IMG/VR virus record: IMGVR_UViG_3300045988_138358 | Length of the DNA stretch: 64,000 nucleotides | DNA from: a virus | Taxonomy: Duplodnaviria; Heunggongvirae; Uroviricota; Caudoviricetes | Strand: one strand, 5' to 3' | In this document: one piece after another, positions 47,230 to 57,854 of the stretch | Layout: each line of letters begins with the position of its first letter | Position numbering within the stretch: position 1 is the first letter of the stretch | Notes under the pieces: generated by a model | The model's input: only the letters and a program-made list of their open reading frames with translations | Told to the model about the DNA's origin: nothing | Databases searched by the model: none | Position numbers and translations under genes: made by a program

Positions 47230-47239
47230 GGCGCATAAA

Positions 47240-47270
47240 GAAGCCCGCCAGACCAGGCGGGCTTTTTGTT
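47240..47270. terminator. intrinsic terminator between humD and the convergent minus operon
   Basis: Hairpin AGCCCGCC-loop-GGCGGGCT followed by TTTTGTT. Confidence 0.65.
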
Positions 47271-47274
47271 GATA

Positions 47275-48369
47275 TCATTCAATGATTTTTTCGGCTGTCA
47301 GCCAGCTAATTTCGTGCCTGTCTTTCGGCGGTTTTAGCATGTGAGCATATTCAGCGACATGCTCCCACGGAATTGTTTTTGCCCACTCAACGATAGCATT
47401 GTGATCTGCAGTGAAGAGTGGAATAGTGTGCGATTTCAACCATTCTAATGTCGTGACGCCATGTTTTTTGGCGTGGTGCTGCGCATGATGCCGGGCTATC
47501 ACTCGTAATGGCATTGTCCATTCACTACCATCAGGCATCGAAAAGCGCATTGTCTTCGGCATATCTGATTCAAGAACAGCCTCCCTAATACCAGGGAACT
47601 CACCAAGAATCATACGACGATAGTCATCACTATTTCGCCCGCCATACCTTTCGGCAAAATGATCAAGATATTCTTGGGTAATAAATGGTGAATCCTCCGC
47701 ACTCAGCTTAATGGCTTTATATACACCACTCGGATTATCTTCAGCTAAAGCACGTCCATGATGTGAATCATAAAAAAAGCCTATTTCCTCTGGTGACGGA
47801 ATTGAAGTGAGCAATATGCGTGAATCACCACTAGTCATGCTTGCCCACACAATGCTGTATGCCCGATCGCTGATATGTGCGGAATCCACAATAATGAATA
47901 AAAGATGGTCGGCGTAGTGACCTGCAATGCTATCTTCATAGTTAAGGCGGTAGTTACAAAAGCACATTCCCCAAAATTCATTGAACATCAGACCGCTATC
48001 ACCGACCTTAAAATACTCAATGATAAAAGGTTGTTTTTTCAGCAATGCCTCCCAACATTGCCACACATATGCAACAATTCCTCTTTTGCAAACATTTGAT
48101 TTTGGATAAACAATTACTGTCCGGGAATCAGGATACATAATCGTATAAAGGGTACTAATAACAGCAAGCACTTGCGGTCGTCCGATCCCATACGGAGTGG
48201 TGACAGTAGCTTTTGCATTATTGGGCTGTATAGCTTCAACAATTTGTTGTTGCTGGTGGCTTAAATCAATATCAAACAATTCTTTTGCTGCCAGTACCCA
48301 ATTGTCTTTATATTTCTCCACCAGCGACAGCCAGCGCGGATCTTTATAAATATTGCTCTTAGTCGCCAT
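47275..48369 (-). CDS. terminase large-subunit ATPase-domain paralog with degenerate Walker A and B, no nuclease domain
   Basis: ORF track 47275-48660; likelier start ATG 48369. Aligns by eye with the PacB-like protein at 53517-55025, but GHGTGKS is PYGIGRP and LDEAS is VDSAH. Confidence 0.6.
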   Translation of the reverse strand: MATKSNIYKDPRWLSLVEKYKDNWVLAAKELFDIDLSHQQQQIVEAIQPNNAKATVTTPYGIGRPQVLAVISTLYTIMYPDSRTVIVYPKSNVCKRGIVAYVWQCWEALLKKQPFIIEYFKVGDSGLMFNEFWGMCFCNYRLNYEDSIAGHYADHLLFIIVDSAHISDRAYSIVWASMTSGDSRILLTSIPSPEEIGFFYDSHHGRALAEDNPSGVYKAIKLSAEDSPFITQEYLDHFAERYGGRNSDDYRRMILGEFPGIREAVLESDMPKTMRFSMPDGSEWTMPLRVIARHHAQHHAKKHGVTTLEWLKSHTIPLFTADHNAIVEWAKTIPWEHVAEYAHMLKPPKDRHEISWLTAEKIIE

Positions 48370-49126
48370 CTGCCACTTCCTTAACTTCTTCTTTGGCCTG
48401 TTCTGCAATCGCCGCACGGCATTTCGCCCTGGCCGTAGCGATTGCTTCAGCACGCACATCATCAGGAATCGTTGACGTGATATACATATCCAGTTCTTCG
48501 GCGCGGAACACTGTTTGGTCCAGATATTCGCGTAGCATCCAGGTAAATTCGAAATCACACGCGATAATCTCTGCGCTACCTTCTGCACCATTTGGGAAAT
48601 GAATAAAAGCCTGTTTAGCCAAACCGATAACACGACATGCGGTTGCCAAAACAGCGGCAACCAGGTTTACATTTTCACACGCTACGGGCTGATTAACGCC
48701 GGAGATTACTCCATTTAACTGTCGGTTATATGGAAGGTAGTTTGAGATGCGTTCTACGCGCCATGTGCCAGTCAGGCTGCCATTCTTAAAGATAATTGGT
48801 GTAACGGATAGCCCAAGCTCGCGTATAAGTCGTTGCGCTATAGCAGGATCATTAAACATGTCTAATGCTACACATTCGAAAGACTGTGCAAGGGTAAACA
48901 GTTCTTCCAGAGAGTAGTCTTTGCCCCTGGCGGTGATGTAACGATGAACGCCGCTTTCTGCATCACTCCATATAGCTACGCCATGCTCTTCATTCAGCTC
49001 TTCATTAAAGCCGAGATACGTCATGATAGTACGTTCAATCGTGTCAAACGGCAGTGACATGTCGGCGTTAACAGCCACCAGCAGGCCATTACGCAAGCGG
49101 TATTGAATTGCTTTAGTATTTTCCAC
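48359..49126 (-). CDS. hypothetical protein
   Basis: ORF track 255 aa; overlaps the downstream gene start. Confidence 0.35.
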   Translation of the reverse strand: MENTKAIQYRLRNGLLVAVNADMSLPFDTIERTIMTYLGFNEELNEEHGVAIWSDAESGVHRYITARGKDYSLEELFTLAQSFECVALDMFNDPAIAQRLIRELGLSVTPIIFKNGSLTGTWRVERISNYLPYNRQLNGVISGVNQPVACENVNLVAAVLATACRVIGLAKQAFIHFPNGAEGSAEIIACDFEFTWMLREYLDQTVFRAEELDMYITSTIPDDVRAEAIATARAKCRAAIAEQAKEEVKEVADGD

Positions 49127-49132
49127 GTTAAA

Positions 49133-49597
49133 TCACTCCACTACAAACCAGTCACATGCCAGTAAGTCGCCTACAGAAGGCGCCCACGGAACAACTACAC
49201 CTTGTGCATTTTTTAAGGCGAAATAAGCACCATACGGAACGAGATCGCCGGGGAAATATCCCTTAATGGCTTCCATTCGTGCCGGGTACTGTCCTTCAGG
49301 AACCAGCCAGCAGAATTGGTTTTCGCCGTTCCACCCGCGCCGGGCAACTTTCTTGCCATCCTTCAGCCACATCAGCGCGTCAGAAAAGTCGGCTGCTTCA
49401 AGGTCGATTTCTTCTTGCTGGGTGGTGATGCCACCAGCAGAAATAGTTACGCTCCCGGTAAGATTAATCATCACGCCGTTGTCATCCGTAATGATGACCG
49501 TGGTTCCATTTTTGGAGGCGTCGTTAACCAGGCCATAGCGTTCCTCAGATGATTTGGGAAGGAACTTAAAAAGCTCTTTCGTTGCCATGTTATTCAT
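49133..49597 (-). CDS. fusion protein with C-terminal DUF2829-like (Tad2-like) domain
   Basis: ORF track 154 aa; C-terminal ~90 aa (ALMWLKDGKKVARRGWNG .. VVPWAPSVGDLLACDWFVVE) match the DUF2829 hallmark pattern as I recall it. Confidence 0.55.
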   Translation of the reverse strand: MNNMATKELFKFLPKSSEERYGLVNDASKNGTTVIITDDNGVMINLTGSVTISAGGITTQQEEIDLEAADFSDALMWLKDGKKVARRGWNGENQFCWLVPEGQYPARMEAIKGYFPGDLVPYGAYFALKNAQGVVVPWAPSVGDLLACDWFVVE

Positions 49598-49611
49598 AGT
49601 CTTTTCTCTGC

Positions 49612-50106
49612 TTATAACTTTTCGTACTGAAGCGGTGAACGCTTAATTTCAAAGTGGCCTTCCGATGTGCTACCAAAGCCACCAGCGCCTCGCTCTGTTT
49701 CATCGAGTTCATCAACTTCTACCAGCGATACCGGTTCAACACGCTCAAAAATGCCTTGCATGACCGCCATTCCTGGCTTGAGGCAAACGCCTTCACCACC
49801 GGGATCTGTAATCAGTTTTGCCATGATTTCACCGCGATAATCGGAGTCGATAATTCCTACGCAGTTAGCCAGGCGAGTATGTTTTTTGCAGCCCAATCCG
49901 GAACGCGGATAGAGTTTCAGACACCAGCCGGGCGGGATCTCCATAGCCAGTCCGGTGTACACCCACCAGCTTGAGGAAATTGCACCATTGCTATCGACAC
50001 ATGGTTTTATTTCAACAGCCTCAAAATCCATCGCCGCCGATCCGGAGGTGGCATAAGCTGGAAGTTTTGCTGCCGGATGTAGGCGTTTCACTTTTACGTA
50101 AATCAT
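49612..50106 (-). CDS. dut: dUTPase (trimeric dUTP pyrophosphatase family)
   Basis: ORF track 164 aa; motifs SAAMDF, GIIDSDYRGE and RGAGGFGSTS. Confidence 0.8.
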   Translation of the reverse strand: MIYVKVKRLHPAAKLPAYATSGSAAMDFEAVEIKPCVDSNGAISSSWWVYTGLAMEIPPGWCLKLYPRSGLGCKKHTRLANCVGIIDSDYRGEIMAKLITDPGGEGVCLKPGMAVMQGIFERVEPVSLVEVDELDETERGAGGFGSTSEGHFEIKRSPLQYEKL

Positions 50107-50579
50107 TGTTTTTTAGCTCTCTGCGTGAATGTGTAAACCCGACGTTTGATATGTGGAACGGTAGGAACAGGAAGACAGGAACTTTCAATAACTCCTTGCT
50201 CCTCCAGCGATCGCACCGCCCGCAAGAACTGCGACGTGTCGCCGCCAAACTGGCGGGCATAGGTGCTGCCGTTATGAAGTATTTGAGCTATTACCCGAGC
50301 TTTTGTCTGGCTGTCACGATATGCGAATAGCCGCACGGCCTCTTCTGGCGCAATCGCTAACTGATAGCCTTTCCCGGCACGGTGTCGAATGAATCCATGC
50401 GCCAGTAGGTTTTTGAGTTCGTTACGAGTGCGAACAGATCCGTAACCCAGGAAGTGTGGATTGATAACGACTGGCTTAAACCATTCCGTAGGTGCTTTAG
50501 CTAATAGAGCTAACAGCTTCCCGGATAATTCTGGATAGGAAGACGGGTAACAATTCAGAGATGGGTAATAAGTTTTCAC
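50103..50579 (-). CDS. hypothetical protein
   Basis: ORF track 158 aa. Confidence 0.3.
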   Translation of the reverse strand: MKTYYPSLNCYPSSYPELSGKLLALLAKAPTEWFKPVVINPHFLGYGSVRTRNELKNLLAHGFIRHRAGKGYQLAIAPEEAVRLFAYRDSQTKARVIAQILHNGSTYARQFGGDTSQFLRAVRSLEEQGVIESSCLPVPTVPHIKRRVYTFTQRAKKQ

Positions 50580-50920
50580 CGACGCCCCCTTGCAGGATAT
50601 CGACCGGCATTAGTATCCGGTGCAATAAAGCCGGTAGTGGGGCGAGTGAAAGCGAGATTAATCTTCTCGACCATAGTGCGATAATTTTCCTGATAGTGGG
50701 CCAGGAGTTTTTCGGCGGCAATGATGGTTACTTTCCGGACGTAGCTTTCTGCTTCCTCCAGATTTCGCCAGTTTTTTTCGAGGGTAAACACAGGGACGGC
50801 CTCAAGCCCGGTCATGATGCCGAACACAACGACAGCATGACTGTTCTTAACACCAGCGGCGAAGGTTACGGTGTAACCATCCACCTTGAAGCGTCTTGAT
50901 TCCGTGATTTGACTCTGCAA
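50576..50920 (-). CDS. hypothetical protein, first gene of the operon
   Basis: ORF track 114 aa; TTG start preceded by GGAGG. Confidence 0.3.
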   Translation of the reverse strand: MQSQITESRRFKVDGYTVTFAAGVKNSHAVVVFGIMTGLEAVPVFTLEKNWRNLEEAESYVRKVTIIAAEKLLAHYQENYRTMVEKINLAFTRPTTGFIAPDTNAGRYPARGRR

Positions 50921-50977: not shown

Positions 50978-50987
50978 GTGTTAGAAA
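50978..50987. promoter_or_regulatory. operator-like half-site GTGTTAGAAA upstream of the 50920 operon
   Basis: Recurrent motif. Confidence 0.4.
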
Positions 50988-50993
50988 TTTAAT

Positions 50994-52022
50994 TTACGAA
51001 TCCATCAGGCGGCTATTAGCCCCCACAGACACGCCGCCACGGCGAAGATACCGCATAAGTGTTTCCGGTTTCTTCCAGGTTCCTTCCTGCATGATCTCCA
51101 CCATAGACACCTGCTTTTCAGCCATATCAATAGCGGCCCCGACGCGTGCACTATGCCCGGTCCACGTCCGGTATCTTCCTTTGTTTGGCGTAGCATCTCT
51201 TTTATTCAGCAACACCCAGGCGTCGCTGAATATTTTCTCCATTGCAGGTGCAGTAAGGGGCGTTGTCGTGATCCTGGCCTTATTGCTACGGTGTATCGGC
51301 GGGAACAGCACTGCGTCAGGATGTTCGCGAAGCCCGGAAACATCCAGCCAGTCATTCAGCACAGCGGTAGTGCGACGGGAAAGCACCTTATCAAGCCCGG
51401 CGGCGGTCGTTATTGTCTTCGTGTGTGAAATATGTAGCGTGACAGTGTCACCTGTTTGGTCCAGATCTCCTACACGAATACGCGAGATTTCCGACATACG
51501 CATCAGCGTATTGTATGCAACAAAGAGAAAAGCCCGGTTGCGCAGGTCCACCAGCCGTTCTGACCTGGACAACAGGACGTCGAGCAGTTTCAGATCGTCC
51601 CACCGCAGCGGTATAGCCTGGCCTGTTCGTTCGCCTTTTTCAGTTGCCGCTTCGCGCCGGATGCGCCGCATAGCCAGAGAAACACTTTTATCATCCGAAA
51701 GTGGCGGAAGGCCACAATGCGAAAGCAGCATGTTCAGCATGGCGTAGTGCTTATCAATGGTGGTCGAAGCCAGATCGGCATCATGCAGCTGAAGAAAATA
51801 CTCGCGGGCCATTTCTGGTGAGATCGGAAACCAGGCAAGCTGGCGAGCGTGACACCAGCGCGCCCAGGAATGAAACACCAAACGGAGGTCGCGCAGAGTA
51901 TTCGGCGCATAAGCTCCCTGGTCATTCATGAACCGCATAAAGTTTTCTGCGGCTTCCTGGTACTCTTTGCCAATGTTGCGCAGAAAACCACCGGAACTGC
52001 CAGAGATAATTAATTCACTCAT
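50994..52022 (-). CDS. cre: Cre-like tyrosine site-specific recombinase
   Basis: ORF track 342 aa; C-terminus WTGHSARVGAAIDMA..EIMQEGTW..MRYL matches P1 Cre (WSGHSARVGAARDMA..EIMQAGGW..MNYI) as I recall it, catalytic His/Arg/Trp/Tyr in place. Confidence 0.85.
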   Translation of the reverse strand: MSELIISGSSGGFLRNIGKEYQEAAENFMRFMNDQGAYAPNTLRDLRLVFHSWARWCHARQLAWFPISPEMAREYFLQLHDADLASTTIDKHYAMLNMLLSHCGLPPLSDDKSVSLAMRRIRREAATEKGERTGQAIPLRWDDLKLLDVLLSRSERLVDLRNRAFLFVAYNTLMRMSEISRIRVGDLDQTGDTVTLHISHTKTITTAAGLDKVLSRRTTAVLNDWLDVSGLREHPDAVLFPPIHRSNKARITTTPLTAPAMEKIFSDAWVLLNKRDATPNKGRYRTWTGHSARVGAAIDMAEKQVSMVEIMQEGTWKKPETLMRYLRRGGVSVGANSRLMDS

Positions 52023-52407: not shown

Positions 52408-53445
52408 ATGAGTAAGAAGTCGATCGAGAAAGAGTACAAACGGTTCCTGCAAACCGCTGAACGGTGGAAAGAGCTGGTGGTCGCAAACTCTGTTTTCCAT
52501 GATACCAGTTATTCCGGCGAGGAATTCCGCCATGTTGCACTAACACATGATCAGAATGTGCTAGAAGAAGCTGAAAAGTGCCTCACAGAATGGAAAGCCT
52601 TTGTTGACTTGTGCCGTAACGCTGACGGCAAAGCGTCTAACATTGTTGAGTCTGTATATTCTCCGATCCCATTCATTATCGAGGACACAAATCAAAGCAC
52701 GCATATTGTTGTGCAAAGCGCGACCACCACCCGCTCATTTACGCGCGAAAATCTGCTCAAAAAATATGATGCAATTATAAAGAAAAGCCTGAAAAACAAG
52801 ATATTTTCGCAGATTGTTGGTGCACTTGAAGAAGAGCGCCGTTTTTTCGCATCAGAACCTGAAGGGGAAGTTTACCGGGCGCGCAAAGATGGATACACAG
52901 ATGTAGTGCTTACAACAAACATTGAAGGCAGCAATGCTCTGTCACGATTCAGGGTAGGCGCACACGGAGCCTTAGTGTTCGCAAAACTTCCGAACACCAC
53001 AGTGCCCGTTGTTAATAATGTCGGCGAACGTCGCAGCATTACTATTTATTCTGGGGTTGAGTCGATACCTTGCGGCCTGCTTGGTGACTTTAGTCTCTAT
53101 CGCGTTCGCGATCTGGAGAAACACCAACCAAGCTATGTTGCGAAGTCATACATCTTGCGAAACATCGACATCCGCAATGAGAGCTTAAAGAACAAATCAG
53201 CCAAAATGCTTGAGGAAGCCGATCCGGCTATTCGCCATATCATTGAGCGTAAAATACAGACAGCACGCGAAGCGATGGCGAGACTGAATAAAATGGATCT
53301 GGAGTTGTTAGACGTAATGATGACATCCGGAGATGACCTGACAGGCATAAAACTGACAGACGCGCGGAAAAGATACGGTAAAACCATAGAAGAACGTTAC
53401 GGGTTCACTTTCTCCCAAACACAGCACGCCGCTAAACTCTGGTAA
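52408..53445 (+). CDS. hypothetical protein
   Basis: ORF track 345 aa; AT-rich upstream region; between lox-cre and the terminase genes. Confidence 0.4.
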   Translation: MSKKSIEKEYKRFLQTAERWKELVVANSVFHDTSYSGEEFRHVALTHDQNVLEEAEKCLTEWKAFVDLCRNADGKASNIVESVYSPIPFIIEDTNQSTHIVVQSATTTRSFTRENLLKKYDAIIKKSLKNKIFSQIVGALEEERRFFASEPEGEVYRARKDGYTDVVLTTNIEGSNALSRFRVGAHGALVFAKLPNTTVPVVNNVGERRSITIYSGVESIPCGLLGDFSLYRVRDLEKHQPSYVAKSYILRNIDIRNESLKNKSAKMLEEADPAIRHIIERKIQTAREAMARLNKMDLELLDVMMTSGDDLTGIKLTDARKRYGKTIEERYGFTFSQTQHAAKLW

Positions 53446-53516: not shown

Positions 53517-55025
53517 TCAAATATCCAGATCTGGCATTTCTACATCTGCAAGAACCTGATCGCGGAAGGTAGCCATTTCAGCGCCGATATCTTCATTAGC
53601 AGGAACATAGTCCACCAGCATTGTAAAGCAGTAGGTATCCCATCGGTCAGGTGATTTGATGTTCAGCTTTTGCCGCATGTGCTCCTTGCGCATCATCGCC
53701 ATCTTCCCTTCTTCATTAAGTAAAAAGGGGATTTTTGACGCTTGCTCTGCCGTTTTAGGGTCGCTGTCTATTCGCATACGACCTGACTTTATGGCATCAC
53801 GAGCCATAATATTTGCGTAGGCACGCTGGTTAACAAAACGCTCCTTGTCTTTGTTCGAAAACATGGGTTTCCCCCACCGAATCCGTACCGGATTAGCCCC
53901 ACGGCGCACCAGCTGCGCACAGGTATCTGAACCAAAACCGTCTGCGTCAACCGCGATTGTAATATTCGGGTATTTATCCGGCGTGCATTCGTTGTATATA
54001 AAGTCAGCAAAAGCCAGCGGGTCCATAGTCCCTGGCATTTCCATTACCTTAAAGTTAACAACACGCCGCTTTTCCCGGTGACCAGACACTTTACAGATAT
54101 TAAGAACTGACTTGTCTCGCCCGTTACCAACGTCAGCAGTAGCCACCCATCCCCAGTTTTTCTCCAACAACACCTTGCGCCGCGCAGCGCGATCGCATTC
54201 ATCACGACCAAGCAAATAGCCGTTAATCTCCCGAGGAAACTGACCAAGAACCTTGACCATGTACTCAATAGAATCGCGCCCGCCATATTCTAGGAGTTTC
54301 TGCCTGATGAATTGTGGTGTGACGAACGGTGATTCTTCTGAGTTAAGAACAATTGCTGTCCAGATCCCTTTCGGGTTGTCTGGGGTTTTAGCTTGAGAAT
54401 GGTGCGAATCGTAGAAATAACCACTTGGCCTTGTTGGCTGGGATAGCATCAACATTCGGTTATCTTCTTCAGTCAGAGCGCCAGTCATTACGCCGATCGC
54501 TTTATCAGATATACCTGATGCTTCATCCAGAATTAGAAGCAAATGTGCCGCGTGCTCCCCCGCCAGAGCTTCTTCGTTACCGAGTCGATAGCCTTTGCAG
54601 AGAACTTCCCAGATCCCCTTTCGAGAGCGTTCATAAAACATGGTGTCAGACAGGACAAAATAGGTCTGTAACCACCCATGACGCTTAACGGCATTCGCCC
54701 AATACTGTTTAACGTATTTGAATACACCTGTCTTAACCTGACCTATTTTGTTAGCAACAATGATGACACGGGCATCGGGGAACAGAATCAAATAAATCAG
54801 CAACAACATAGCCGTTAGCGACGATTTCCCTGTACCGTGACCAGAGGTAACAGTGGTTCTGCTCCCTTTTTGCTGTACGGACTGGATAATCTCCTGCTGC
54901 TGGTGGGAGGGAAACATCCCGAATATATCAACAACAGCCTGGGTAAAGTTGTAGCGGTATTTGATTACCATATCGCGCCAGCGTGGATCGCTGGTGACGC
55001 ATTTAATCTTGCGCCCACCAGCCAT
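53517..55025 (-). CDS. terminase large subunit (PacB-like)
   Basis: ORF track 502 aa; intact Walker A SGHGTGKS and Walker B ILDEAS; start overlaps upstream stop (TAATG). Confidence 0.8.
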   Translation of the reverse strand: MAGGRKIKCVTSDPRWRDMVIKYRYNFTQAVVDIFGMFPSHQQQEIIQSVQQKGSRTTVTSGHGTGKSSLTAMLLLIYLILFPDARVIIVANKIGQVKTGVFKYVKQYWANAVKRHGWLQTYFVLSDTMFYERSRKGIWEVLCKGYRLGNEEALAGEHAAHLLLILDEASGISDKAIGVMTGALTEEDNRMLMLSQPTRPSGYFYDSHHSQAKTPDNPKGIWTAIVLNSEESPFVTPQFIRQKLLEYGGRDSIEYMVKVLGQFPREINGYLLGRDECDRAARRKVLLEKNWGWVATADVGNGRDKSVLNICKVSGHREKRRVVNFKVMEMPGTMDPLAFADFIYNECTPDKYPNITIAVDADGFGSDTCAQLVRRGANPVRIRWGKPMFSNKDKERFVNQRAYANIMARDAIKSGRMRIDSDPKTAEQASKIPFLLNEEGKMAMMRKEHMRQKLNIKSPDRWDTYCFTMLVDYVPANEDIGAEMATFRDQVLADVEMPDLDI

Positions 55026-56389
55026 TAGTCATCCTCCGGCGGTTCTATCGCAATATCATCATCTCCGGCGTCATACCCTGCATCTGATGCATCATAATCA
55101 CCGTAAATTTCAGCCGTTGCCGAAGGGTCAATGTCCAACTCTTCATCGTTGGCCTCGAATTCCCCAGCCTTACGCTCGCCATTGTGGTCGTAATCTCCGC
55201 ACCCCAGATCTTCAACAATGGTTGCCACATCCGCCCGGCGCTCTGCCAGCCATTGCGGATGGTTAGCCTGAAGCGATGCAAACTCCTTCGCTTCTTTGTC
55301 CAGCTGTTCATCATCAACATCATTGATGTCAGAAACTGGAGGTTCGAGAAGAGTGATAGCTTTCGCCGCGCGCGCCGCGAGGATAGCCGGGACACTGACA
55401 CCCTGACGCTCGATGTATTCAGCAACACCGATATCGTCCAGCTCCTCGCGCTCACGCATACGTATAGCGGCGGCGATAACTCTGGCTGCGCGTGCGTCAG
55501 CGCCAATGCGATATTCAATCTCTTTGCCACGCTGTTCGGCCTGTAGGCGTGCTAATTCGAGTTTTTCTCTGGCCTCGGCCTCTCTGAATGCTTGCTGGCG
55601 AGCACCCTGACGAAGTTTTTCATCACCCTGTCGCAGCTTTTGTTCGGACTGATATATCGCTGCCAACCTACTGATAAAATCGTTCATGTAGTAGGCCGCG
55701 TCACTGATTAGACCGAGAAGTCGCTGCCCAGGGTGCATTCCTTCTGGCTGTTCATCACCCAGGGCGTCTATCTCCGCCTGTAGGCGTTCGGCCTCCTGAT
55801 CAACAATGCTTTGGTACTGAAGTGCGCGTTCTTGCGCCATTTGAATTGCTAACCGCAGGTGCTCTTCTGCGCCGTTCTTCATCATGTCGCGAGCCACACT
55901 CGTAGTGGGCAACGTGGCACGCTGCACAGCACCGCCAGGGATCATTGCTGAAGATCCCTCGATTTTTGAGGCGCATTTATCTTCGGTGGGGATCATTTTC
56001 GCCATTTTTTCGCGCAATGATCTCCTGACAGATTCTTTTATCTCATTGTTATTATTTGCATTATTTTCATGATCCGAAGTTTTCTTTCTCGGCATACTTC
56101 GGAAAGAACCTGTGCCCTGCGAATTGTCAATTTCTGTAAATTTTGTTGTTTCTGTACCCTCTTCTGGTCTTTTTTTTGCTCTTCCTGCCCGTTTTTTTTG
56201 AGGTGATTTGGTGCTTTTTTTTGTAGTCTTCACCTGCGACCGCACCTCATTTTTTTTCATATTGAGATGCTTTCTGGCGGTATTGAAGCTAAGGTCGTGT
56301 TGCTCGCAGTATTCCTTTACGGTGATCCCTTTTTCTTCACGCAACGCTATAAATTTGGCGCGGTGCTCTTCCCAATTAACCAGACTCAT
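55025..56389 (-). CDS. terminase small subunit-like (PacA-like) protein
   Basis: ORF track 454 aa; N-terminal HTH-like segment, acidic C-terminus, coupled to the large subunit gene. Confidence 0.5.
   Translation of the reverse strand: MSLVNWEEHRAKFIALREEKGITVKEYCEQHDLSFNTARKHLNMKKNEVRSQVKTTKKSTKSPQKKRAGRAKKRPEEGTETTKFTEIDNSQGTGSFRSMPRKKTSDHENNANNNNEIKESVRRSLREKMAKMIPTEDKCASKIEGSSAMIPGGAVQRATLPTTSVARDMMKNGAEEHLRLAIQMAQERALQYQSIVDQEAERLQAEIDALGDEQPEGMHPGQRLLGLISDAAYYMNDFISRLAAIYQSEQKLRQGDEKLRQGARQQAFREAEAREKLELARLQAEQRGKEIEYRIGADARAARVIAAAIRMREREELDDIGVAEYIERQGVSVPAILAARAAKAITLLEPPVSDINDVDDEQLDKEAKEFASLQANHPQWLAERRADVATIVEDLGCGDYDHNGERKAGEFEANDEELDIDPSATAEIYGDYDASDAGYDAGDDDIAIEPPEDD
55940..56075. 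other. GATC hexamer cluster inside the PacA-like gene (candidate pac site)
   Basis: Five GATC within ~135 bp as GGATCA, AGATCC, GGATCA, TGATCT, TGATCC. Confidence 0.35.
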
Positions 56390-56778
56390 AAAGCAACACC
56401 ACGCTTTTTAACGGCGGCATTCCACAGCTTATTCGCCATGTCCACCAGCTCTCGTTGCTCTTTTCGCGCCTGTTCGACTGATTTCCTGCTACAGTTTTTA
56501 ACCAGTAAGCTACCGTATTCAGGGGTGCGCCCGCGCACCTTGAACTGATATCCGTTCAGGCCATGCAACCAGTATTTCCGTGGGTAAACACGATCATCAA
56601 GCTCACAAATAGCTCGGCTTGACCGCACAAAATGCCGAATGATGTTGGTTACACTTACTCGTGAAACATGAAGGTGAGGATATTTTTCTTTAGCTAGAGT
56701 GGTGATTTCGGTGACTGTCAGATAGCAGTCAGCCCTAATCATGATATCCGCAATTTCTGCGCTGCTGATATGCTCCAT
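56386..56778 (-). CDS. hypothetical protein
   Basis: ORF track 130 aa; overlaps the PacA-like start; operator-like site upstream. Confidence 0.3.
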   Translation of the reverse strand: MEHISSAEIADIMIRADCYLTVTEITTLAKEKYPHLHVSRVSVTNIIRHFVRSSRAICELDDRVYPRKYWLHGLNGYQFKVRGRTPEYGSLLVKNCSRKSVEQARKEQRELVDMANKLWNAAVKKRGVAL

Positions 56779-56886: not shown

Positions 56887-57279
56887 CTACCAGCGAGATA
56901 AGCGAACGACGTGTTTTACCTTAGCGATCCACTTACCACGTGAGTTATTAATTACGGCCTGCGCCACCTTTAAGCTGACTTCAAAATCAGCCTTACGACC
57001 ATCAGAATCCACCAGCGTTGCACCGTCTATTTCCGGCAGGCTTAAATAATCCTGTTCTACCTCTAATGGCATTGACGGCTCTCTGAATGGTGTCAATTGC
57101 CGAGCTTTCCAGATAAAGCGAACTCTCAATCCCCTATAAGCCATTACCATGTAGCCTGTTATCGTGCTCTTATGGCCTGCATCAGTACGCGCAGCATTAC
57201 ACGATACAATCTTACAGGTGACGATATTCCACTCCACGTTGGAGACTTCGTGAATGCTTAATTTTGTTGTCTCGTACAT
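56887..57279 (-). CDS. hypothetical protein
   Basis: ORF track 130 aa. Confidence 0.3.
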   Translation of the reverse strand: MYETTKLSIHEVSNVEWNIVTCKIVSCNAARTDAGHKSTITGYMVMAYRGLRVRFIWKARQLTPFREPSMPLEVEQDYLSLPEIDGATLVDSDGRKADFEVSLKVAQAVINNSRGKWIAKVKHVVRLSRW

Positions 57280-57854
57280 CAGAATGCCTCCCAGTCAGTT
57301 GCGATAATATCCACGCCAGTTGCGAACCAGTCTGTCTGCGCCTGTAAATCCCCATTCATCATTACCAGGCGAGGCATAACCATCACATCGCACCCTTCCA
57401 CAATATCGAATGCCTCTTCCGGCAAGAATTCGAAGAGCTTTTCTTTGCTGCCAATGCTGCCACGGAACATCGATAAATAGCTCCCTTTAGGCCATGATGC
57501 CCGGCGGGCATCCAGCCCCTTCATCATCCAGAACATGGCGGCAGAAAAATTGATGTTCTTTTTGGCGATGAAAACATTATTGGCTTCTGTTTGCTTCAGA
57601 AACTTAATTAGCCTTGCCATCGACTCGGATAACGCTACGTATGGCTCATGATTGGCTGCGGACACGCTCACACCATGTAATCCAACACTGACTACCGTCA
57701 TATCGCCGCTTTGAGCGGTTTCAATGTTGACACCTTTGCGAACTAACGAGGCATAAAGTTCCTCTCGCTTTTGTGTCCAGCGTTCCCGCTGACCGATGAA
57801 GTCACTCAATATGAGGTCTGCTTCTGCATACGCGTTATCGTTCGCCGTTAACAT
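57279..57854 (-). CDS. fusion protein with C-terminal DUF2829-like (Tad2-like) domain, more divergent
   Basis: ORF track 191 aa; C-terminal half (AAMFWMMKGLDARRASWPKG .. PRLVMMNGDLQAQTDWFATGVDIIATDWEAF) follows the same pattern. Confidence 0.4.
   Translation of the reverse strand: MLTANDNAYAEADLILSDFIGQRERWTQKREELYASLVRKGVNIETAQSGDMTVVSVGLHGVSVSAANHEPYVALSESMARLIKFLKQTEANNVFIAKKNINFSAAMFWMMKGLDARRASWPKGSYLSMFRGSIGSKEKLFEFLPEEAFDIVEGCDVMVMPRLVMMNGDLQAQTDWFATGVDIIATDWEAF

Follow-up and report, generated by a model that had tools for sequence, protein, structure and literature searches.

A catalytically degenerate paralog of the large terminase PacB with a hypervariable ATPase-like domain in D6- and P1-like phage-plasmids

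The operon and its last gene

This study concerns a paralog of the large terminase PacB, encoded in a window of 64,000 nucleotides (IMG/VR record IMGVR_UViG_3300045988_138358; the window is the whole stretch of DNA that was analysed). The window belongs to a D6-like (P1/D6-type) phage-plasmid of E. coli: it is 96% identical to Escherichia phage D6 across the shared parts of the region, and the region is 100% identical to several E. coli plasmids of ~92 kb; the D6-like plasmid NZ_CP134379 likewise shows 100% identity here. Resistance genes in E. coli and Salmonella are commonly carried by phage-plasmids of the P1/D6 type, and P1 itself serves as a model phage. The paralog (47275..48369, minus strand, 364 residues) comprises an ATPase-like domain that appears to be non-catalytic and a small C-terminal domain. 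It is the product of the last of six tightly packed minus-strand genes, all of which are present as listed in an earlier, sequence-only reading of this DNA.

The gene directly upstream encodes an IsaA-like protein of 255 residues with an acidic C-terminal tail (48359..49126, minus strand; phrog_2326 4e-134), which is 47% identical to P1 IsaA. Farther upstream on the same strand are a Tad2-like (DUF2829) protein of 154 residues with a 65-residue N-terminal extension (49133..49597; Pfam PF11195 2e-22, 79.9 bits for a gathering cut-off of 25), and a dUTPase of the trimeric type with 164 residues (49612..50106; PF00692 1.3e-13 and NCBIfam NF001862), which passes the cut-offs of both families (51 bits versus 22, and 118 bits versus 103 for the NF001862 equivalog). 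The Tad2-like protein matches the solved Tad2 structures 9eib (2.5e-20) and 8v3e (3.2e-20), and its family also includes AcrIIA7-type proteins. The first two genes encode proteins of unknown function, a 114-residue homolog of D6 orf117 (50576..50920, minus strand; phrog_1968 4e-48 and D6 annotation) and a 158-residue homolog of D6 orf116 (50103..50579, minus strand; phrog_6669 2e-97), the latter having no match in Pfam, the PDB or PADLOC. Searches of Pfam, NCBIfam, PADLOC and the PDB with these two proteins and with IsaA returned nothing above weak noise, and the six operon proteins gave zero matches to the PADLOC anti-phage defence models at E<=0.01. The terminator postulated after the operon is a real intrinsic hairpin, AAAAAGCCCGCCTGGTCTGGCGGGCTTCTTT (~47240..47266, minus strand), lying between the paralog gene and the convergent humD.

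The true start of the paralog is the ATG at 48369, which is preceded by an AAGGA Shine-Dalgarno sequence and overlaps the stop of isaA by 11 nucleotides. The Prokaryotic Genome Annotation Pipeline (PGAP) annotates the same start in related plasmids. The 461-residue, TTG-initiated open reading frame (ORF) at 47275-48660 on the minus strand, which overlaps isaA in another frame, was rejected as an over-extension from a mechanical ORF list; a database cluster of 438 residues named 'Terminase large subunit' (P0002) is apparently the same over-extension.

A terminase ATPase fold without its catalytic residues

The genes around the operon follow the P1 map in its D6 version, and the functional terminase served as the comparator: PacB, of 502 residues (53517..55025, minus strand; phrog_2 2e-40), has intact GHGTGKS and LILDEAS motifs and is 56% identical to P1 PacB. 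Its pacase small-subunit-type partner PacA, of 454 residues, is encoded at 55025..56389 on the minus strand (phrog_1711 5e-178, 'terminase'), next to lpa (56386-56778; PF25716).

The proposed alignment of the last gene with the functional terminase across the ATPase domain was confirmed. BLASTP gave 37% identity to the resident PacB over 258 residues (E 5e-62), which is far beyond chance, and the paralog matches phrog_5902 at 1.2e-164. Residues 8-260 are homologous to the PacB proteins of the P1/P7/D6 group at 33-38% identity, and the alignment stops at residue 260. Paralog and PacB share an N-terminal segment of ~50 residues as well as the FYDSHH and GEFP motifs. The AlphaFold2 model, with a predicted local distance difference test (pLDDT) score >85 over residues 1-260, agrees with this assignment: the top Foldseek matches in the PDB are all TerL ATPase domains (6z6d, 4znl, 2o0j and 4idh; E 3e-8 to 1e-6), and the best fold matches come from the large terminases of HK97, P74-26, T4 gp17, Sf6 and D6E. 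The structure of Avs3 in complex with a terminase (8dgc) was also matched, through its terminase chain, which reflects no more than the shared fold. Sequence searches of Pfam, NCBIfam, PADLOC and the PDB with the paralog gave nothing above weak noise.

The ATPase-like domain (residues 1-260; 47590..48369, minus strand) has degenerate Walker motifs. As the sequence-only reading had stated, the P-loop is PYGIGRP in place of GHGTGKS. Its claim of a degenerate Walker B motif also stands, with the residue assignment corrected by one column: LILDEAS pairs with IIVDSAH, so that the Walker B aspartate has become valine and the catalytic glutamate has become aspartate. Five diverged paralog clusters in a large protein database, 99, 66, 64, 64 and 52% identical to the window protein, were compared as an allele set, the largest cluster having 851 member sequences. 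Across these five alleles, the Walker A lysine column holds R/Q/H/E, the Walker B aspartate column V/T/A/M/I and the glutamate column D/E/E/D/N. GKS and DE are kept in the window PacB, in P1 PacB and in one distant genuine terminase.

It is highly improbable that the paralog has remained an active NTPase by way of a non-canonical P-loop, or that it belongs to another ATPase family. Three alleles (P0004, P0005 and P0006) do have a lysine one position later (GIGQKT, GIGHKS), and the glutamine of the upstream Q-motif is invariant. However, the window allele reads GIGRPQ and the P1-type allele GIGETS, so that no basic residue is conserved where the Walker A lysine would be or beside it, and every allele has a hydrophobic residue or threonine in the Walker B aspartate column. 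The best sequence and fold matches are exclusively terminases, and no profile assigned the protein to an unrelated ATPase family.

The C-terminal RNase-H-like nuclease domain is absent, and the alignment supports the earlier statement that unrelated sequence has taken its place. The paralog family thus has only terminase-type ATPase homology and lacks three of the four defining TerL features. The same architecture is found in all five alleles, down to 43% identity, and the paralogs form one clade, separate from the clade of P1 and D6-type PacB. Varying replacements at the catalytic positions within a conserved scaffold are the pattern that a pseudo-enzyme should show. We are confident that the paralog arose by an old duplication of PacB and is now a pseudo-enzyme: the terminase ATPase fold has been kept, whereas the nuclease has been lost along with the lysine of Walker A and the aspartate of Walker B. 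Judged from its motifs, it is with high confidence predicted to be incapable of hydrolysing ATP, cutting pac or driving packaging. The presence of a catalytically dead paralog beside an intact PacA and PacB, which the sequence-only reading had claimed, is accordingly borne out.

Selection and prevalence

The ratio of nonsynonymous to synonymous substitution rates (dN/dS) between the paralog and relatives that are 96-99% identical in DNA is 0.04-0.10 and is low in both domains, which indicates strong purifying selection. In PLSDB, 749 plasmids have a match to the PacB family, and 163 of them (~1/5) carry a full-length paralog, defined as a match covering at least 80% of the protein; since PacB covers ~70%, this threshold counts only full-length paralogs. 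IsaA is present in 465 PLSDB plasmids.

These data leave hardly any room for a functionless, decaying duplicate or a mis-called ORF. The loss of the catalytic motifs would fit decay, as would the inconsistent annotation ('terminase large subunit' in MH422554 and 'hypothetical protein' in other records). The low dN/dS and the intact ORF in 163 plasmids led us to reject a decaying pseudogene, and the five alleles with a shared architecture, the good Shine-Dalgarno sequence and the coupled start point the same way. Phage typing and phylogeny should avoid the gene as a terminase marker.

IsaA as the constant partner

The isaA stop and the paralog start overlap here and in three relatives (L009, L011 and L015). 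In D6-like plasmids, the gene order is dre-114aa-158aa-dut-Tad2-like-isaA-paralog, usually followed by the convergent doc-phd-humD. In P1-like elements, it is ssb-isaA-paralog-hxr-ddrB, with neither dut nor the Tad2-like gene. Phage D6 has everything up to isaA, including dut and the Tad2-like gene, and lacks the paralog. IsaA is the only constant partner, because dut and the Tad2-like gene are lacking around the P1-like copies; it is a conserved, translationally coupled partner of the paralog across two unrelated genomic contexts. The weight that had been put on the association with the dUTPase and the Tad2-like protein was not justified. This pairing is restricted to the D6-like lineage, where D6 itself has both genes without the paralog, and a survey of related phage-plasmids did not find it to be constant. 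A consistent partner for IsaA provides a handle on a P1 gene to which no function has been assigned since the annotation of the genome.

In P1-like elements, the paralog lies precisely within the known variable isaA-IS1-isaB region (RD-2) of P1, downstream of the same IsaA family; at this spot, reference P1 has IS1 and the unrelated isaB instead. We considered P1 IsaB as a remnant of the paralog and rejected this on comparison. IsaA was likewise rejected as a paralog of PacA; there is hence no second terminase pair. The P1 locus is a recognised hypervariable region of P1-like phage-plasmids (PMC9603915, PMC6906374), and isaA was non-essential in a CRISPR interference (CRISPRi) screen (PMC10695390).

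A hypervariable allelic cassette

A hypervariable cassette with several alleles (47642..48409, minus strand) comprises most of the ATPase-like domain together with the final ~15 codons of isaA. Between the window and another D6-like plasmid, DNA identity falls to 44-72% over 48409-47642, compared with 98% from dre to dut, 94-100% in isaA and 90-97% in the C-terminal domain of the paralog. At the protein level, the N-terminal domain is only 51-54% identical across plasmids whose PacB proteins are 92-99% identical. In three plasmids with PacB at 98-99%, PacA at 95-97% and Dre at 99% identity, the N-terminal domain of the paralog stands at 53-54% and its C-terminal domain at 89-97%. The ATPase-like domain is thus represented by old alleles, each of them conserved, which are exchanged among near-identical backbones. 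These alleles do not co-vary with the resident terminase, IsaA or other nearby genes, and such a pattern is typical of specificity determinants.

The acidic tail of IsaA (48359-48460, minus strand) belongs to the variable cassette and overlaps the paralog start. It reads EEVKEVADGD here and is longer, EEQSDEVAADVEAEVAEDADADA, in other alleles.

The lack of co-variation with PacA and PacB disfavours a tight, co-evolving interaction of the paralog with its own terminase. This bears on a reading that we regard as rather unlikely, namely that the paralog regulates its own pacase by binding early to PacA, PacB or the pac site, so that pac cleavage would be delayed or limited, or the cut end protected, until heads are available. 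The N-terminus binds the small subunit in other terminases, and the N-terminal ~50 residues retained from PacB, together with FYDSHH and GEFP, would suit such a role, as would the probable early expression discussed below and the distance of only 5 kb from pacAB in D6-like elements. However, the ATPase-like domain has diverged to 51-54% where PacA and PacB remain 95-99% identical, D6 and reference P1 package normally without the gene, the paralog is far from pacAB in P1-like elements, and ~4/5 of the PacB-bearing plasmids do without it. The divergence of the domain and the normal packaging of D6 and P1 also weaken the earlier proposal of a dominant-negative inhibitor with respect to the element's own packaging.

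The C-terminal domain family

In place of the nuclease, the paralog ends in a domain of ~100 residues (47278..47589, minus strand), a member of a family of small early phage proteins that is widespread and unannotated. Both the membership of the C-terminus in this family and the hypervariable cassette had been overlooked in the sequence-only reading. In an exhaustive phmmer (HMMER) search, residues 256-364 matched 196 cluster representatives at E<1e-3, 7 of them at E<1e-10, and a profile search extended the family to 351 clusters. Most relatives are free-standing proteins of 90-130 residues. The family signature is MPDGSxWxVPVxVIARNRAxxYA...EDTxPLF...DWAxNNMNWxDV...GWxNG, with invariant A, T/F and W columns in the alignments, and the paralog fits it. 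The domain corresponds to the C-terminal part of phrog_17928 (4.7e-13). The family has no Pfam model, no named member and no solved fold match; searches of Pfam, NCBIfam, PADLOC and the PDB gave nothing above weak noise, such as DUF5076 at E 0.011. The domain marks out a large family, with more than 350 clusters, for which Pfam still has no entry.

Free-standing copies sit in runs of small early genes, for instance downstream of cIII-Erf-HNH-SSB in a lambdoid prophage and among the small genes of the P1-like Cronobacter phage JK004. The domain also forms the end of a 511-residue protein whose gene immediately precedes those for Erf, exonuclease and SSB (ORF36 of Xanthomonas phage CP2; L006 2771-4306), and the end of a DUF1351 protein (P0149). 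The reverse architecture occurs in a 246-residue gene of Klebsiella michiganensis (P0026; L027 8001-8741), where the small domain is followed by a paralog-like N-terminus with GSGTGTTT. This gene is cut short by foreign high-GC DNA, with AbiH and RecA-dependent nuclease genes nearby. A word-indexed search found no relatives of this swapped architecture, and as a single gene it gives weak 'Rosetta-stone' support for the link between the two domains.

Some of these neighbourhoods suggest that the paralog could be an accessory of DNA metabolism, its terminase-fold domain binding DNA or DNA ends while the C-terminal domain and IsaA act alongside SSB and recombination functions. The isaA-paralog pair follows ssb in P1-like elements, the CP2 and DUF1351 fusions are of this kind, and so is the prophage copy downstream of Erf-HNH-SSB. 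We nevertheless consider this role improbable: the evidence is of neighbourhood only, other free-standing copies lie among unrelated small genes, and the allelic hypervariability of the ATPase-like domain is left unexplained.

Operator sites and expected time of expression

An operator-like site, AATTAAATTTCTAACAC (50978..50994, minus strand), lies directly after the stop codon of the Cre-like recombinase gene dre (50994-52022), upstream of the operon. The site, which the sequence-only reading had named operator-like, is a member of an enriched repeat family: the 17-mer AATTAnnTTTCTAACAY has 7 matches in the window for 0.18 expected, and the 11-mer core TTTTCTAACAY has 16 matches for 3.1 expected. 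A copy of the motif immediately upstream of lpa occupies the position of the C1 operator Olpa in P1. A repressor of 345 residues is encoded at 52408-53445, and its homologs in relatives have a precomputed match to PF27008 (Phage_P7_repressor_C1). The (AATTAnn)TTTTCTAACAY repeats are probably the operator set of this D6-type C1 repressor. The sites of the core motif include 18078, 26149, 35978, 36636, 40732, 52379, 56856, 60574, 60730, 61980 and 63023.

The P1 C1 operator was rejected as the regulator here; its consensus has no match in the window, and D6-like elements use the different repeated motif. In the P1-like carrier L011, the P1 operator Ossb, with one mismatch, precedes ssb-isaA-paralog. 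As both contexts are downstream of repressor-operator sites, the positions of these sites suggest repression in the lysogen and early expression in lytic growth.

Such repression would speak against the view that the paralog is a prophage-borne exclusion or defence factor, in which the terminase-like domain would detect or titrate packaging proteins brought in by other phages or by satellites, each allele having a specificity of its own. The hypervariable cassette does resemble a specificity determinant, and the gene is accessory, variable in presence and located in a known variable region. However, PADLOC gave no match, and the C-terminal domain, being a harmless-looking, free-standing early protein in many lytic-cycle clusters, is a poor fit to a toxic effector. 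An exclusion factor is therefore also an unlikely explanation.

Possible function

Compared with PacB of P1, P7 and D6, the paralog shows homology, the same ATPase fold and N-terminal segment, and occurrence in the same group of phage-plasmids. Unlike PacB, it lacks a nuclease as well as the Walker A lysine and Walker B aspartate, has an unrelated C-terminal domain and forms its own clade. Moreover, it is dispensable and variably present, and it belongs to an early accessory operon and not to the lpa-pacA-pacB unit.

The explanation that we tentatively prefer, without regarding it as established, is that the paralog is a terminase mimic which acts by binding only, early in lytic growth, in a conflict that may be either counter-defence or competition between elements. 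The terminase-shaped domain would serve as a surface for recognition or mimicry, and the invariant C-terminal domain and IsaA would supply a common output. The protein would probably be made early after induction or infection. Packaging can proceed without the gene, and the variable domain changes independently of the PacA and PacB of the same element; the partner of the paralog is therefore probably external to the element's own packaging machinery. One candidate target would be a host factor that recognises terminases, in which case the paralog could be a counter-defence decoy or blocker; another would be the packaging machinery of competing P1-type elements or satellites. The narrower proposal, that an early, hypervariable terminase mimic together with IsaA and the C-terminal domain blocks terminase-recognising immune sensors or the packaging of rival P1-type elements or satellites, is possible but doubtful.

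A conflict-type role had also been proposed in the sequence-only reading and is still the best one, although the dUTPase and Tad2-like association on which it was based is confined to D6-like elements. Genes of counter-defence type adjoin the paralog in both contexts, Tad2-like here and ddrB/darA in P1-like elements. Phages use decoys and sponges against host defences, for example Tad2 and Ocr. Like these, the paralog is probably early, non-enzymatic and variably present, and its hotspot includes a Tad2-like gene as well. We know of no anti-defence protein with a terminase fold, and the EVADES anti-defence survey has no entry with this fold.

Binding without catalysis is also found in the packaging-redirecting proteins of satellites, such as Ppi of Staphylococcus aureus pathogenicity islands (SaPIs), Rpp of phage-inducible chromosomal islands (PICIs) and the satellite TerS homologs, which are small accessory proteins that bind the terminase system. 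This would be one possible way for the paralog to work. In contrast, the satellite proteins are encoded by satellites and target or mimic the small subunit, whereas the paralog is encoded by a phage-plasmid and would mimic the large-subunit ATPase.

Several points weigh against a binding-only mimic acting in conflict. No PADLOC, Pfam or structural match gives the C-terminal domain or IsaA a function. Gao and colleagues are said to have found in 2022 that Avs3 recognises features of the terminase catalytic site; the paralog lacks the features that Avs3 reads, and a simple binder might activate such a sensor and not block it. At 33-38% identity, the paralog is no closer to P1 PacB than to D6-type PacB, so it mimics no particular present-day terminase. 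Old alleles could be swapped by recombination without an arms race. Finally, early expression is deduced from the operator positions only, and a promoter scan between dre and the first gene gave no good promoter.

The sequence-only reading knew of no described system of this kind, and neither did the literature that we searched for inactive, second or decoy terminases; it held no description of such a protein, and the papers on the region only name the locus as variable. If the proposed role is true, the combination of a conserved, dead terminase and a hypervariable recognition domain that can be swapped would amount to a new kind of accessory factor. It would be the first case in which the motor that packages viral DNA has been made into a pseudo-enzyme weapon, and would offer an entry point to how phages handle terminase-sensing immunity and to packaging competition among co-resident elements.

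Other features of the region

The interval between humD and the paralog (47230-47275) was compared with L015, L019 and D6. It holds the terminator only, in a place where most relatives have phd-doc; D6 additionally has orf109 and pdcA between humD and the position of the paralog.

The Tad2-like gene of the operon is a second variable gene, adjoining the conserved isaA. Its product has 154 residues here, compared with 220-233 in four relatives (L019-L022), and is only 71-81% identical to theirs, although the backbones are otherwise 95-99% identical. Another Tad2-like (DUF2829) gene, of 191 residues (57279-57854, minus strand; Pfam 1.5e-09), lies two genes upstream of lpa and is kept at the same place in related plasmids, giving the element two Tad2-family genes.

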